Shown: one piece after another, positions 1,319 through 12,610 of the stretch | Numbering within the stretch: position 1 is the stretch's first letter | Layout of the letters: every line of letters begins with the position of its first letter | IMG/VR virus record: IMGVR_UViG_3300029653_000015 | DNA: 27,553 nt | From: a virus | Lineage: Duplodnaviria; Heunggongvirae; Uroviricota; Caudoviricetes | Strand: one strand, 5' to 3' | Translations under genes and position numbers: made by a program | Notes under the pieces: generated by a model | What the model was told of the DNA's origin: nothing | What the model saw: the letters and a program-made list of their open reading frames with translations, nothing else | Databases searched by the model: none

Positions 1319-1544
1319 CGGGTCCTCCCGGTGGGGGCCCCTGCCACGGGGCGGGAGCGTCGCGGAAAAAGGCTAGTTTTTGCATTTCCATGGCGGCGGC
1401 AGCATGTTTGGTAATTTATTGATAATTAAAAGTTATTTCTCTTTTTACCTGTACAATATTTTTTTCTTCCTGTCATTAGACCAGTTTGCAATTAATTGAA
1501 ATATATAAATAAACCTGATTTTCACCTGCCAGATGGAGTTGCTT
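1319..1544 (+). other. helper prophage cos region (cosN-like core CCACGGGGCGGGAGCGTCGCGG at 1345..1366, plus AT-rich cosB-like segment up to the terS start)
   Basis: The GC-rich core resembles lambda cosN (GGGCGGCGACCTCGCGG). It lies about 190 bp upstream of terS, the same spacing as in lambda. The segment recurs at 9998..10236 and 12538..12610. Confidence 0.6.
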
Positions 1545-2072
1545 ATGTCAAATGTGAGCGGGATCGGTGATGCTTATTACTGGAGTGTTTTTAAAATCGC
1601 CGAGGCCTTTGGGCTTCACCGGGACACAGTAAAAAAACGGCTCCTCGCGGCCAACACTCCTGTGGCTGCGACTGTCAGGGGGAACCCCGTTTACGCCCTG
1701 CAGCATGTCGGGCCCGCCCTGTTTAGTGTGAAGCATGAGGCAGCAGACTCTGTTCATGATCCATCCCGTATGGAGCCGAAAGAGAGAAAGGACTGGTACC
1801 AGTCTGAAAATGAAAGGATCAAGCTGGAAAAGGAGCAGCGAAAACTCATCCCAGTTGATGAAGTAGTCATCGTCTATTCGTCCATGAGAAAGGCTGTCGT
1901 CCAGGTTCTGGAGACAATTCCGGATGTTCTTGAACGCGATTGCGCCCTGACTCCTCAGGCCGTCGGCGTTGTACAACAGGCCATTGATGACCTGCGATAC
2001 ACTCTTCAGGAAAAATCCTACGAGGCTTGTGCTGCTGAATTAATTCCTGATGAGGAAGGAGAGAGTCTCTAG
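1545..2072 (+). CDS. terminase small subunit (helper prophage)
   Basis: Sits directly between cos and terL. N-terminal HTH-like segment, central charged KDWYQSENERIKLEKEQRKL coiled-coil-like segment. Homologous to the second copy at 12764..13249. Start taken at ATG 1545 (GGAG 6 nt upstream); the ATG at 1533 is the alternative. Confidence 0.65.
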   Translation: MSNVSGIGDAYYWSVFKIAEAFGLHRDTVKKRLLAANTPVAATVRGNPVYALQHVGPALFSVKHEAADSVHDPSRMEPKERKDWYQSENERIKLEKEQRKLIPVDEVVIVYSSMRKAVVQVLETIPDVLERDCALTPQAVGVVQQAIDDLRYTLQEKSYEACAAELIPDEEGESL

Positions 2073-2080
2073 GAGGAATA

Positions 2081-3073
2081 ATGGGTTTTTCATCAGCCCG
2101 AAATTTGGGAAGGGACATATCGGCAGGATTTTCCCCACCACGTCGCATGCCGATTTCGGAGGCTGTTAAAAAATTCATGCGTGTTCCCAAGGGGGCTGGT
2201 AACTCGGTGCCATGGGATCCTGAACTGACACCCTACATCATTGAGCCCATGAACTGCCTGGCATCGCGTGAATACGATGCGGTGATTTTTGTTGGTCCTG
2301 CGCGAACAGGGAAGACCATTGGTCTGATCGATGGATGGATTGTCTATACCATCGTTTGCGATCCTTCGGACATGCTCGTTGTGCAGATGACCGAAGATAA
2401 GGCCCGCGAGCATTCTAAAAAGCGCCTCGACAGAACGTTCAGAAGCAGTGCTGCGGTAAAGAAAAGAATGAGTCCACGTCGTAACGACAATAATGTCCAT
2501 GATAAGACGTTCAGGGATGGCTCGTTCCTTAAAATTGGTTGGCCCTCGGTCAACATTATGTCGTCGTCGGATTACCGGTTTGTCGCCTTAACCGATTACG
2601 ACCGTTTTCCGGAGAATATCGACAGCGAGGGTGATGGTTTCTCCCTGGCCTCAAAACGTACCACCACATTTATGTCCGCCGGGATGACTCTGGTGGAGAG
2701 CTCGCCGGGACGTGACATCTGCGATAGCAAATGGCGACGTAAGTCGCCTCATGAAGCGCCACCGACGACTGGTATTCTTTCCCTTTACAATCGTGGTGAC
2801 CGCCGCCGCTGGTACTGGCCATGTCCGCACTGCGGTGAATATTTTCAGCCAGCTATGGATGCCATGACCGGCTACCGTAATGAACCGGATCCCTTTAAAG
2901 CCAGTGAGGCGGCGTATCTACTTTGCCCGCACTGCAGCGGCATTATCACTGCGGAGAAAAAGCGTGAGCTCAATAGTGCAGGAGTCTGGTTGCGTGAAGG
3001 TCAGGTCATTGATCGTAACGGCAACGTTTCCGGTGAACCGCGCCGCTCCCGTATCGCCAGTTTCTGGATGTAG
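2081..3073 (+). CDS. terminase large subunit, N-terminal ATPase part (gene interrupted by the inserted element)
   Basis: AGGAGG RBS. Walker A-like GPARTGKT. Zinc-finger-like CPHCGEYF and CPHCSG. Ends ...RIASFWM then TAG exactly at the insertion junction. Continues in frame with 13496..14608 if the insert is removed. Confidence 0.8.
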   Translation: MGFSSARNLGRDISAGFSPPRRMPISEAVKKFMRVPKGAGNSVPWDPELTPYIIEPMNCLASREYDAVIFVGPARTGKTIGLIDGWIVYTIVCDPSDMLVVQMTEDKAREHSKKRLDRTFRSSAAVKKRMSPRRNDNNVHDKTFRDGSFLKIGWPSVNIMSSSDYRFVALTDYDRFPENIDSEGDGFSLASKRTTTFMSAGMTLVESSPGRDICDSKWRRKSPHEAPPTTGILSLYNRGDRRRWYWPCPHCGEYFQPAMDAMTGYRNEPDPFKASEAAYLLCPHCSGIITAEKKRELNSAGVWLREGQVIDRNGNVSGEPRRSRIASFWM

Positions 3074-3234
3074 GGTACATTTCTTACCTGTTTTTATGTT
3101 CTGGTGTCGTTTTATAGTCTTTTCAATGAGTTGTGATTTTTTGAGTTTCCTCTCTTTACTTGATAATGAGTTAGTTTATCGCTTGTTATCGACTTGAATG
3201 GACTACATGACGGACTAAAAAATGAGGGCGATAG

Positions 3235-10382: not shown

Positions 10383-10592
10383 ATGAGTAGCATCAATGAC
10401 CTGAACACAGCTGACACAAACGGCGGATCCGTTCATCTGGACGCTAAAACAGTAATGCGCCTCAAGCAGTACAGAATAGATCACGCCGTTAATCTACCCG
10501 CGCAGCCATTGCCAGGTGTGGCGCAAATTGTCAGACACGCAGTTAACGCGTGGCTTGATAAGAATGGTTTTGCATCTGGGGGTGAGCAATGA
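10383..10592 (+). CDS. hypothetical small protein preceding the satellite capsid gene
   Basis: 69 aa with AGGAG RBS. Stop overlaps the start of the protease/capsid gene. Confidence 0.45.
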   Translation: MSSINDLNTADTNGGSVHLDAKTVMRLKQYRIDHAVNLPAQPLPGVAQIVRHAVNAWLDKNGFASGGEQ

Positions 10593-12505
10593 ATCGCTGG
10601 TACACCATTAAAGCGGCGGATGTTCGCGGAACGGCGGAGATATCCATCTATGAGGAAATTGGTGGCTTTGGTATTACCGCGAAGCAGTTCACGGAAGACC
10701 TGAAAGCCCTTGGCGATGTTTCACATATCAATCTGCGGATCCATTCACCAGGTGGCGACGTGTTTGAAGGTATCGCCATCTATAACCTGCTACGGAATCA
10801 TCCGGCAGACATTACGGTTTATATCGATGGCGTGGCGGCTTCAATGGCTTCGGTCGTCGCAATGGCTGGCGATCGCGTTGTTATGCCGGAGAACGCCATG
10901 ATGATGATCCATAAGCCGTGGGGGATCTCTGGCGGAAATGCTGGCGATATGCGTGATTATGCTGATTTGCTGGATAAAGTGGAAACCGTGTTAATCCCTG
11001 CTTATGCCAGAAAAACGGGCAAATCAGCACAGGAAATTGCCGCCATGCTGGAAGATGAAACCTGGATGGACGGGAAAGAATGCCTTAAGCACGGTTTTGC
11101 TGATGAATTGTTGCCATCTGTCAGAGTAATGGCGCGAATTGAATCGAAACGCACAGGAGATTTTTTACATATGCCGGAAACCATTAAGGGAATGATTACC
11201 CCGCCGAAATCACAGGCAAAAAACACCATTACAGGCGACCAGGAGCGCATTAACGGCATTAAAGAAATTTTTAGCGTGTTCGGCAACCAGTACGACGGGA
11301 TCAAAATGTCGTGCCTTGAAGATGCATCCTGTACGCTGGAAATGGCCCGGGAACGTCTGCTTAACGAAATGGGTAAAAACCACACACCAACAAATAAAAA
11401 TATCCCGTCTCATATTTATGCCGGAAACGGGAACATAACAGGCGATGCGATTCGCCAGGGCCTTTATTCCCGTCTTGGGTATGAGCGTCCTGAGCGTGGC
11501 AATCCTTACGCGATGATGAGCCTTTTTGAAATGGCCCAGGCGTCACTGGTTGATCGCGGTATCAGTGTTGGCGGTTTTTTAAATCGCTCGCAGGTCGTTA
11601 ATGCAGCTTTTACACACAGCAGCAGTGATTTTTCTCATATTCTGGCTGGCGGTGCTGAAAAATCAGTGCTGAAAGGCTGGCAGGACAGCGGTGAAACGTT
11701 CCAGAAGTGGACGCGTAGCGGTTCACTTTCAAACTTTCACGAGGCAAAACGCGTTGGCCTGAATGGTTTTTCAAAACTGGATAAAGTGCCGGAAGGCGCG
11801 GAATATAAATACATTACTACCAGTGACAAGGGCGTACCTATTGCGCTGGCCACATACGGGAATATTTTTTCTGTTACCCGCCAGGCCATTATTAACGATG
11901 ACCTGACCCAGTTAACTACAATCCCCATGGCGATGGGGCGTGCAGCCGCCAGAACAGTAGGTAATCTGGTGTATCTCCTGTTAACCGGCAATGGCAAATT
12001 CACGGATGGTAAGGCGCTATTCCATGCCGATCATAAAAATCTTATTGCGAAGGATATGGACATGGAGGGACTTAACGAAGCCCGTAAGCTAATGCGCCTC
12101 CAGGAGGACGCTAACGGTGATTCGCTGAATATTACCCCCGCATTTGTCCTGGTCCCCGCCGCGCTGGAGTCTGCCGCACATCGCGCCATTCTGTCATCGT
12201 CATCACTCTTTCCGGTTGATAGTGAGGGCACTATCAATCAGAACCCCGGCATCATTAACGTGGTGAAAGATATGGCTGAGGTTATTGTTGAGCCACGTCT
12301 TGATAAGAACAATAACAAAGAGTGGTATGTAGCCGCAGCGAAGGGGATGGACACGATAGAGGTCGCTTATCTTGATGGTATTGATACGCCATATCTTGAG
12401 GAACAGGAGGGCTTTACTGTTGATGGTGTCGCCTGGAAGGTGCGCATAGATGCAGGTGTTGCAGCCCTCGATTATCGTGGACTACTGAAATCGAGTGGAG
12501 CATGA
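10589..12505 (+). CDS. prohead protease (ClpP-like)/major capsid protein fusion, satellite copy
   Basis: 638 aa. ClpP-like catalytic motifs GVAASMASV and MMMIHKPWG. Continuous reading frame into a capsid-like C-terminal domain. Roughly 60-70% identical by eye to the helper copy at 16339..18297, with a shorter linker between the protease and capsid domains. Confidence 0.8.
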   Translation: MNRWYTIKAADVRGTAEISIYEEIGGFGITAKQFTEDLKALGDVSHINLRIHSPGGDVFEGIAIYNLLRNHPADITVYIDGVAASMASVVAMAGDRVVMPENAMMMIHKPWGISGGNAGDMRDYADLLDKVETVLIPAYARKTGKSAQEIAAMLEDETWMDGKECLKHGFADELLPSVRVMARIESKRTGDFLHMPETIKGMITPPKSQAKNTITGDQERINGIKEIFSVFGNQYDGIKMSCLEDASCTLEMARERLLNEMGKNHTPTNKNIPSHIYAGNGNITGDAIRQGLYSRLGYERPERGNPYAMMSLFEMAQASLVDRGISVGGFLNRSQVVNAAFTHSSSDFSHILAGGAEKSVLKGWQDSGETFQKWTRSGSLSNFHEAKRVGLNGFSKLDKVPEGAEYKYITTSDKGVPIALATYGNIFSVTRQAIINDDLTQLTTIPMAMGRAAARTVGNLVYLLLTGNGKFTDGKALFHADHKNLIAKDMDMEGLNEARKLMRLQEDANGDSLNITPAFVLVPAALESAAHRAILSSSSLFPVDSEGTINQNPGIINVVKDMAEVIVEPRLDKNNNKEWYVAAAKGMDTIEVAYLDGIDTPYLEEQEGFTVDGVAWKVRIDAGVAALDYRGLLKSSGA

Positions 12506-12537
12506 CAACAAGGGCGGCGATAGCCGCCTTTTTTTAC

Positions 12538-12610
12538 GGGTCCTCCCGGTGGAGTGGCCTTGCCACGGGGCGGGAGCGTCGCGGAAAAAGGCTAGTTTTT
12601 GCATTTTCAT
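12538..12610 (+). other. cos copy C: cosN core (12563..12584) followed by element-specific sequence upstream of the satellite terS
   Basis: About 65 bp match copies A and B (GGGTCCTCCCGG...CCACGGGGCGGGAGCGTCGCGGAAAAAGGCTAGTTTTTGCATTT), then the sequence diverges. Confidence 0.55.

Follow-up and report, generated by a model that had tools for sequence, protein, structure and literature searches.

Predicted cos sites of two cosB types bracket the capsid gene of a satellite embedded in a prophage large terminase gene

Satellites that reside within prophages, the helper-embedded phage-inducible chromosomal islands (HE-PICIs), were published as a family in 2023: 491 such satellites were mapped to 14 sites in prophage late genes, including sites in the terminase gene cognate to lambda A (Tommasini, Mageeney and Williams 2023, PMC10111431). 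The satellite described here lies in IMG/VR virus record IMGVR_UViG_3300029653_000015, a stretch of 27,553 nucleotides that is referred to as a whole as the window, and it is recognizable as an HE-PICI inserted in the large terminase gene (terL) of its helper prophage. Like the published elements, it is divided into an integration zone (int and an AlpA-like gene), a Bro zone, a replication zone and a late zone, the last with a captured capsid gene. In the HE-PICI study, one cos-like 258-bp match was reported in the model element, which itself lacks the small terminase gene (terS), and cosQ, cosN and cosB were not analyzed (PMC10111431). The window satellite differs from that model element in that it encodes a TerS of its own and bears two cos sites whose cosB types differ.

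Two cos sites on one phage-inducible chromosomal island (PICI) are already known from EcCICFT073, in which both sites have phage cosQ and cosN and a non-phage cosB; either site promotes transfer when cloned in a plasmid, and cos1 is used with the protein Rpp (PMC6092414, PMC6739421). Because EcCICFT073 is packaged as phage-length DNA, the terminase must skip cos sites on the way. The window satellite resembles EcCICFT073 in being a Gram-negative PICI with two cos sites that have phage cosQ and cosN, in pairing one satellite-specific cosB with a neighboring specificity-factor gene, in carrying a capsid gene and needing helper TerL, and in having a terminator-like hairpin and T-run just before cosQ. 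The specificity factor itself is different. EcCICFT073 uses Rpp, which re-programs helper TerS, whereas the window satellite has a full-length TerS of the DUF1441/PHROG 141 family, and no sequence similarity was found between the Rpp-type protein beside CFT073 cos1 and this satellite TerS. The layouts differ as well, since the EcCICFT073 pair is inverted, ~750 bp apart and flanks rpp, whereas the pair in the window satellite is direct, 2.5 kb apart and flanks the capsid gene. A phage-type cosB is present in neither EcCICFT073 site but is found in one of the two sites here (copy B, below).

Other satellites share single features with this one. In TerS-encoding Staphylococcus aureus pathogenicity islands (SaPIs), as proposed here, a satellite small terminase redirects helper TerL to the satellite's own packaging site, and SaPIbov5, with its capsid homologue Ccm, likewise has a satellite copy of the helper capsid protein and a possible capsid resizing, which in the present case is conjecture. 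The TerS-encoding SaPIs are pac (headful) elements and the cos SaPIs carry the helper cos without terS, whereas the window satellite is of cos type and has both. Its head and packaging genes are of phage origin, as are those of the capsid-forming PICIs (cf-PICIs); in cf-PICIs, however, this gene set is complete, with portal, connectors, terL and others, and the window satellite has only a protease-capsid fusion and terS. A literature search found no paper on a PICI with a DUF1441 TerS or on a heterotypic cos pair. PICIs with two cos sites (EcCICFT073) and HE-PICIs were thus known before, and what is new is the presence of two cos sites of different cosB type on one satellite.

Anatomy of the three cos copies

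The 22-mer CCACGGGGCGGGAGCGTCGCGG occurs on the + strand at 1344-1365, 10023-10044 and 12563-12584 (copies A, B and C). No further copy is present in the window even at three mismatches, and none appeared in 100 shuffles. The initial annotation had the same number of copies and the same positions for the last two, and its first start, given as 1345, moves to 1344. It had also seen a common segment ahead of each copy, which is borne out: GGGTCCTCCCGG precedes all three, at 1320, 9998 and 12538. The features on which the argument depends are as follows.

1320-1391, + strand: cos A shared core (helper); cosQ GGGTCCT at 1320-1326, cohesive-end sequence GGGCGGGAGCGT at 1349-1360; conserved to +43
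1392-1544, + strand: type-1 cosB of cos A; the R3 position of lambda is occupied by GGCGGCGGCAGC, and a minus-strand IHF consensus lies at 1412-1424
1545-2072, + strand: helper terS (DUF1441, PHROG 141 small terminase), type 1; 100% identity to phage cdtI orf1
9972-9995, + strand: hairpin and T-run after ssb, directly before cos B, as read from the letters
9998-10070, + strand: cos B shared core (satellite); cosQ at 9998-10004, cohesive-end sequence at 10028-10039
10071-10223, + strand: type-1 (helper-type) cosB of cos B; IHF consensus at 10091-10103
10224-10289, + strand: remnant of a helper-type terS start, with GTG and 21 codons, that leads into a terminator hairpin (10258-10274)
10589-12505, + strand: satellite ClpP-protease/major-capsid fusion gene, 638 aa
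12513-12535, + strand: hairpin and T-run after the capsid gene, directly before cos C
12538-12610, + strand: cos C shared core (satellite); cosQ at 12538-12544, cohesive-end sequence at 12568-12579
12611-12763, + strand: type-2-like cosB of cos C; TCATCATCATCATC at the R3 position
12764-13249, + strand: satellite terS (DUF1441, PHROG 141)

The three repeats are identifiable as lambda-type cos sites, with copy A as the predicted packaging site of a cdtI-like lambdoid prophage. The heptamer GGGTCCT, which is reportedly cosQ, lies 29 nt (A) or 30 nt (B and C) upstream of GGGCGGGAGCGT; in lambda it occupies 48473-48479 of 48502, 30 nt before the right end. The lambda genome ends in ...TACGGGTCCTTTCCGGTGATCCGACAGGTTACG and begins with GGGCGGCGACCTCGCGGG, its start reading GGGCGGCGACCT, and the corresponding letters of the window are ...TACGGGTCCTCCCGGTGGAGTGGCCTTGCCACG followed by GGGCGGGAGCGTCGCGGA. 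Set side by side, the cohesive-end sequences are GGGCGGGAGCGTCGCGG in the window and GGGCGGCGACCTCGCGG in lambda. The record of phage cdtI starts at GGGCGGGAGCGT and ends in ...CCACG, that is, it is cut exactly at the homologous point. No terminal repeats or cosN ends were found in 28 whole IMG/VR contigs with the module, which are prophage predictions trimmed at gene boundaries. The possibility that the repeat is a common, unrelated repeat of the host genome was rejected, as its matches in Escherichia coli genomes adjoin DUF1441 terS genes of prophages and satellites.

The core common to all three copies is ~73 bp long (-30 to +43, counted from the first base of GGGCGGGAGCGT). From -30 to -1, copies A and B are 80% identical, A and C 87%, and B and C 93%; from +1 to +43 the values are 88%, 98% and 91%, respectively. 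From +44 to +190, A and B remain alike at 132 of 147 positions (89.8%), against 62% for A and C and 57% for B and C. Copy B extends as far as the place at which the helper terS begins; here ATGTCAAA is changed to GTGTCAAA at 10224 (ATG to GTG), and the similarity stops ~8 nt further on. This agrees with the initial annotation, which had copy B following the helper cosB for ~190 bp into a degenerate terS start. Its view of copy C needs more revision. That copy does share a short segment with the others and then diverges, but the shared length is ~73 bp rather than ~65 bp, and the description of the copy as cosN only does not hold: it has cosQ, cosN and the segment from +13 to +43, followed by a full cosB that is ~79% identical to the cos-terS region of a second, widespread E. 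coli prophage group.

The copies become type-specific from +44. The first TerS-binding element, R3, is located at bp 50-65 in lambda and at bp 48-60 in N15 (PMC9026076), and the start of the type-specific sequence appears to correspond to the R3 position, with R3 assigned by position only and not as individual R sites. An IHF consensus is present at the same offset in A and B and was not found in C. All three copies are predicted to hold the parts needed for cutting and termination by TerL (cosQ, cosN and the next ~30 bp), and to differ in the portion that TerS recognizes.

Copies B and C lie in direct orientation, 2,540 bp apart, on either side of the capsid fusion gene, so that the satellite has, as first noted, one helper-type cos and one of its own bracketing that gene. 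A GC hairpin, a T-run and ACGG are found upstream of both. At the helper site, cos A is preceded (1290-1319) by 2.5 tandem copies of GCTGTCAG (GGCTGTCAGGCTGTCAGGCTGTC), in place of the terminator hairpin found at both satellite sites.

Terminase types and the cos-capsid-cos layout in relatives

Relatives of the module were taken from E. coli genomes and IMG/VR and include at least two helper types. Type-1 helpers, including that of the window and cdtI, have GGCGGCGGCAGC at the R3 position and a TerS of 175-179 aa; type-2 helpers have TCGTCATCAYCAYC at that position and a TerS of 163-164 aa. Both proteins of the window match PHROG 141 (E = 4e-65 for helper TerS and 3e-57 for satellite TerS), and in cdtI a DUF1441 gene lies upstream of terL. 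The satellite TerS is closer to the second kind: its N-terminal half has 70-76% identity to type-2 TerS and 31% to type 1, to which the TerS of its own helper belongs, and its C-terminal half has 58% and 32%. The pairing of cosB with TerS was followed across 164 loci, which are mutually related, so that the counts are not independent events. Type-1 cosB adjoins type-1 TerS in four of four phage contexts, and type-2 cosB adjoins a type-2 or satellite TerS 42 times and a type-1 TerS never. The 24 type-1 cosB sequences without an adjoining terS are satellite B copies, in which the R3-position motif is intact.

In lambda, the N-terminal region of TerL binds TerS. In the helpers compared here (window 2081-2200 and L004 2975-3095), the first ~40 residues of TerL are identical at only 14 of 40 positions between type 1 and type 2, against ~85% elsewhere in the protein. 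This N-terminal variation appears to track the TerS type, as expected for the end that docks with TerS.

Of 5,426 complete E. coli genomes, 163 contain the junction running from the SSB gene through cos B into the downstream sequence (coverage of at least 80%) and 161 contain the capsid-cos C-terS junction, so that the cos-capsid-cos layout is present in ~160, or ~3%. In some elements the module lies behind an unrelated integrase (20-39% identity), which shows that it is not confined to helper-embedded elements. Among the terL-embedded satellites, cos B is present in all five within type-1 helpers and in eight of nine within type-2 helpers; being nearly universal in this subfamily whatever the helper type, it does not follow the type of helper in which the satellite resides. 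In a subfamily whose capsid protein is 62% identical, the geometry is again cos-capsid-cos, but the upstream cosB is of type 3, the downstream one is of type 2, and terS is missing; relatives at ~79% capsid identity have the downstream cos only. Across relatives the capsid-cos-terS arrangement is general, and it is the upstream cos that varies (type 1, type 3 or absent).

Variability was counted over 17 elements with both cos B and cos C. Within the cosB of copy B, 25 of 154 sites are variable, compared with 224 of 637 third codon positions in the capsid gene (Fisher p = 3e-6) and 65 of 153 sites in the cosB of copy C (p = 4e-7). Nucleotide diversity is 0.047 in the cosB of B, 0.124 at the capsid third positions and 0.142 in the cosB of C. 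The low variation in the cosB of B fits selection on cos B.

Some relatives have further cos arrangements. Two of them, L016 (9048 and 9936, minus strand) and L022 (9444 and 10332, minus strand), share the capsid gene and the type-1 upstream cos of the window satellite. Next come a cos whose cohesive-end sequence is different, GGGCGGCAGACG, an unrelated 180-aa protein at the terS position (its role assigned by position only) and then an inverted type-2 cos. It seems that cos sites of several kinds accumulate in the late zones of such satellites. Some IMG/VR contigs (L035, 2766-16300; L018, 816-9986) contain, in one stretch, a pair of satellite late modules, each with a capsid gene, and three cos sites lie between the two; this suggests tandem or nested satellites. 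In many relatives (L003, L010, L013, L014, L017, L020 and others), the last base of the cohesive-end sequence differs, with GGGCGGGAGCGT at B and GGGCGGGAGCGG at C, so that DNA cut at B at one end and at C at the other would bear a one-base mismatch; in the window, the sequence ends in T in all three copies. In E. coli CFT073 (L088), the EcCICFT073 sites are located at 2556 (+) and 3312 (-) and flank a 144-aa gene that is taken as rpp. The first of them has an upstream hairpin, a T-run and ATGGGTCC, as at cos B and cos C, and its cosB holds GACACCACCACCAC, which resembles the type-3 motif GGCACCATCACCAC of other satellites.

Possible roles of the helper-type cos in the satellite

The interpretation favored here, at a probability of roughly 0.55, is that cos B and cos C are alternative packaging entry sites, for helper TerS and satellite TerS, respectively. 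After excision and replication, the satellite concatemer would present both. Cos C would be read by the satellite TerS through its type-2-like DNA-binding half, with recruitment of the helper TerL, and cos B would be read directly by the resident type-1 helper TerS. With one type-1 site and one type-2-like site, the satellite would be packageable by either class of terminase among the prophages whose terL it invades. Lambda-type terminases tend not to cut at a cos until the head is almost filled, and it is on this reluctance that the packaging of unit-length or multimeric DNA, rather than of 2.5-kb or 7.9-kb pieces, would rest. From the anatomy of the copies, the pairing of cosB and TerS types and the conservation of cos B, we infer both the use of the two sites and the TerS that would act at each. 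Further points in favor are that cos B is kept in satellites within type-2 helpers and in one satellite whose capsid gene is deleted, and that the diverged subfamily (62% capsid identity) repeats the cos-capsid-cos layout with other cosB types. EcCICFT073, with its two transfer-competent cos sites and the skipping of cos sites during its packaging, is a precedent.

Several observations speak against two working entry sites. The census shows no need for cos B in type-1 helpers (five of five there, but also eight of nine in type-2 helpers), and some members of the second subfamily reside in type-1 helpers and have neither a type-1 cos nor a terS. Some close relatives (L005, L012, L015, L019 and L024) lack cos B. 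The non-coding stretch after B has 33 variable sites of 143, against 25 of 154 in the cosB of B, which is not a significant difference (p = 0.15), and the low diversity at B could result from a differing recombination history of the whole B segment rather than from selection. A direct cos pair 2.5 kb apart could in principle yield truncated packaged DNA without the capsid gene. Finally, the second cos of EcCICFT073 is dispensable, and its deletion increases transfer (PMC6092414, PMC6739421).

These points bear directly on a serious rival, which is nonetheless judged unlikely: that cos B was left over from late-gene capture and is either non-functional or dispensable. A block comprising cos, terS, terL, portal and capsid would have been taken from a type-1 phage and terS through portal then deleted, so that only cos C and the satellite TerS would serve packaging. 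The dead terS start (ATG to GTG), with its 21 codons and terminator, is as such a history would leave it, and late-gene capture by helper-embedded PICIs is documented. Several close relatives keep the capsid gene, cos C and terS without B, and the dispensable cos2 of EcCICFT073, with the rise in transfer on its deletion, fits here too. It is less easy to see why a relic would have a cosB that is significantly less variable than adjacent synonymous sites and than the cosB of C, or why B should be intact, including the R3-position motif, in 24 satellite copies, one of them without its capsid gene. The second subfamily also has a cos at the same position with another cosB type. It is far less probable that cos B works against the helper, either because a helper-type cosB on a high-copy replicon titrates the helper TerS or terminase or because, in the embedded state, it halts helper-initiated packaging 8.7 kb past cos A. 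PICIs often interfere with helper packaging, as with Rpp, B bears the cosB of the helper and the three cos sites are co-oriented on the composite; yet B is kept equally in satellites within type-2 helpers, whose TerS would escape titration, and the sequence data carry no bearing on interference.

The least probable account is that a single satellite cos was duplicated in tandem around the capsid gene and that the two copies, B and C, diverged later. The initial annotation had suggested a duplication on account of the hairpins ahead of both copies. The hairpins are indeed present, and the left halves of the sites (T-run, ACGG and cosQ to cosN) do co-vary: they are alike at 30.5 of 34 positions within an element, against 24.3 of 34 between elements, and have a 1-bp spacer-length variant in common. 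However, the two hairpins differ in sequence, and the right halves are two phage cosB types that match the cos of two separate prophage groups (~80-90% identity in each case). These data point to a place for the cosB of B within the type-1 phage clade and for that of C within the type-2 clade. Co-variation of the left halves is explained equally well by gene conversion or by exchange of cos halves.

Exchange at cos sites may have left other traces. A search with a synthetic junction (SSB end, left half of B, right half of C, terS) found L085 (9297-9400), a chromosomal PICI between cspD and clpS whose single cos is exactly the left half of B joined to the right half of C, with no capsid gene. 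At the same chromosomal site, L086 (9297-10160) has both cos sites around an internally deleted capsid gene, of which the last ~150 bp are left. The hybrid could be an ancestral state, a product of homologous recombination or a product of packaging from C to B. A speculative and rather improbable extension is that the 2.5-kb segment between the sites is a cos-bounded capsid cassette gained or lost through terminase, which, by cutting two cos sites whose identical 12-nt ends are then re-joined, would add or remove whole late-gene modules and exchange cos halves with no need for homologous or site-specific recombination. The hybrid cos of L085, the co-variation of the left halves and the presence in L016 and L022 of the same capsid cassette with other downstream cos and terS modules are compatible with this idea. 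If true, terminase-driven cassette exchange would provide "late gene capture" in PICIs, so far unexplained, with a mechanism.

If the favored interpretation is right and both sites work, the satellite would hold two "keys" for two terminase classes, together with its own small terminase, and could have a wider range of helpers. A simple rule to predict the prophage by which a given island can be mobilized would then lie in the cosB motif at +44 and the N-terminal type of TerS with which it is paired. The satellite would also be a natural system in which to ask how a translocating terminase ignores or cuts the cos sites that it meets, since two cosQ-cosN sites are located 2.5 and 7.9 kb apart on a 10.4-kb replicon. 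Because the layout occurs in ~3% of complete E. coli genomes, it matters for the reading of prophage regions, in which a split terL with extra cos sites should not be taken for assembly noise or prophage decay.

The split terL gene and the rest of the satellite

The genes of the window were identified by Pfam and PHROG searches and by comparison with public records. On this basis the window is identifiable as a lambdoid prophage of the cdtI/Tritos type with a satellite inside the helper terL. The helper late genes are ordered cos A, terS (DUF1441, PHROG 141), gpA-type terL, portal, ClpP-protease/major-capsid fusion and tail genes. The remaining features, in order, are these.

2081-3073, + strand: 5' fragment of helper terL (GpA ATPase domain); its stop, TAG, comes from the satellite at the junction
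3064-3070, + strand: attL identity block CTGGATG, from alignment to the intact cdtI terL
3235-4473, + strand: satellite tyrosine integrase; same annotation in relatives
4486-4689, + strand: gene for an AlpA-like helix-turn-helix protein, after the RefSeq annotation of relatives
4749-5330, + strand: Bro-N gene, after the RefSeq annotation of relatives
7372-7671, + strand: DUF4222 gene, satellite replication zone
7668-9083, + strand: RepA-type helicase, satellite replication zone
9285-9536, + strand: small open reading frame, satellite replication zone
9533-9955, + strand: SSB gene, satellite replication zone
10383-10592, + strand: orf69 (PHROG 4934)
13492-13498, + strand: attR identity block CTGGATG, from alignment to the intact cdtI terL
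13496-14608, + strand: 3' fragment of helper terL (GpA nuclease domain), from a domain match and alignment to cdtI terL

The two halves of the helper terL abut perfectly on the intact 699-aa TerL of phage cdtI, with the break at the 7-bp repeat CTGGATG. The satellite is 10,428 bp long, has its genes co-oriented with terL and is inserted at the linker between the ATPase and nuclease domains (FWM|EGPA), a site that at least eight independent relatives also occupy. As terL is split, it can be restored only upon excision of the satellite. At attL, a TAG stop from the satellite directly follows the core, and at attR the ATG of the core opens a 370-aa open reading frame that spans the whole nuclease domain, so that, with the satellite in place, the ATPase and nuclease domains of TerL could be made by the prophage as two polypeptides. 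Between attL and attR, the only head and packaging genes are the protease-capsid fusion and terS, and the satellite is predicted to depend on the helper's split terL and portal.

The satellite fusion protein (10589-12505) has 56% identity to that of the helper (16078-18297) and ~41 residues fewer in the linker between protease and capsid domains. This shortened, scaffold-like linker might alter capsid size. When the translations were compared by eye, orf69 had no obvious similarity to the small head-tail gene product of the helper. The match of the AlpA-like protein to HTH_17 is weak (E = 0.004) and does not reach the Pfam cut-off.

An Rfam scan of the window gave no family at threshold, and C4/isrK-like immunity RNAs, known from some PICIs, were not detected; hits in a promoter scan were no more frequent than in shuffled sequence. 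The open reading frame at 5472-6521 (349 aa) has no Pfam match, and its final 90 residues match PHROG 6196, annotated as "transcriptional repressor". At the equivalent place, relatives carry short RefSeq genes on the opposite strand (YlcI/YnfO family). The G+C content is 36-40% over the integrase and AlpA-like genes (3000-4700); elsewhere in the satellite it is ~50%, and in the helper late genes it is 52-59%.

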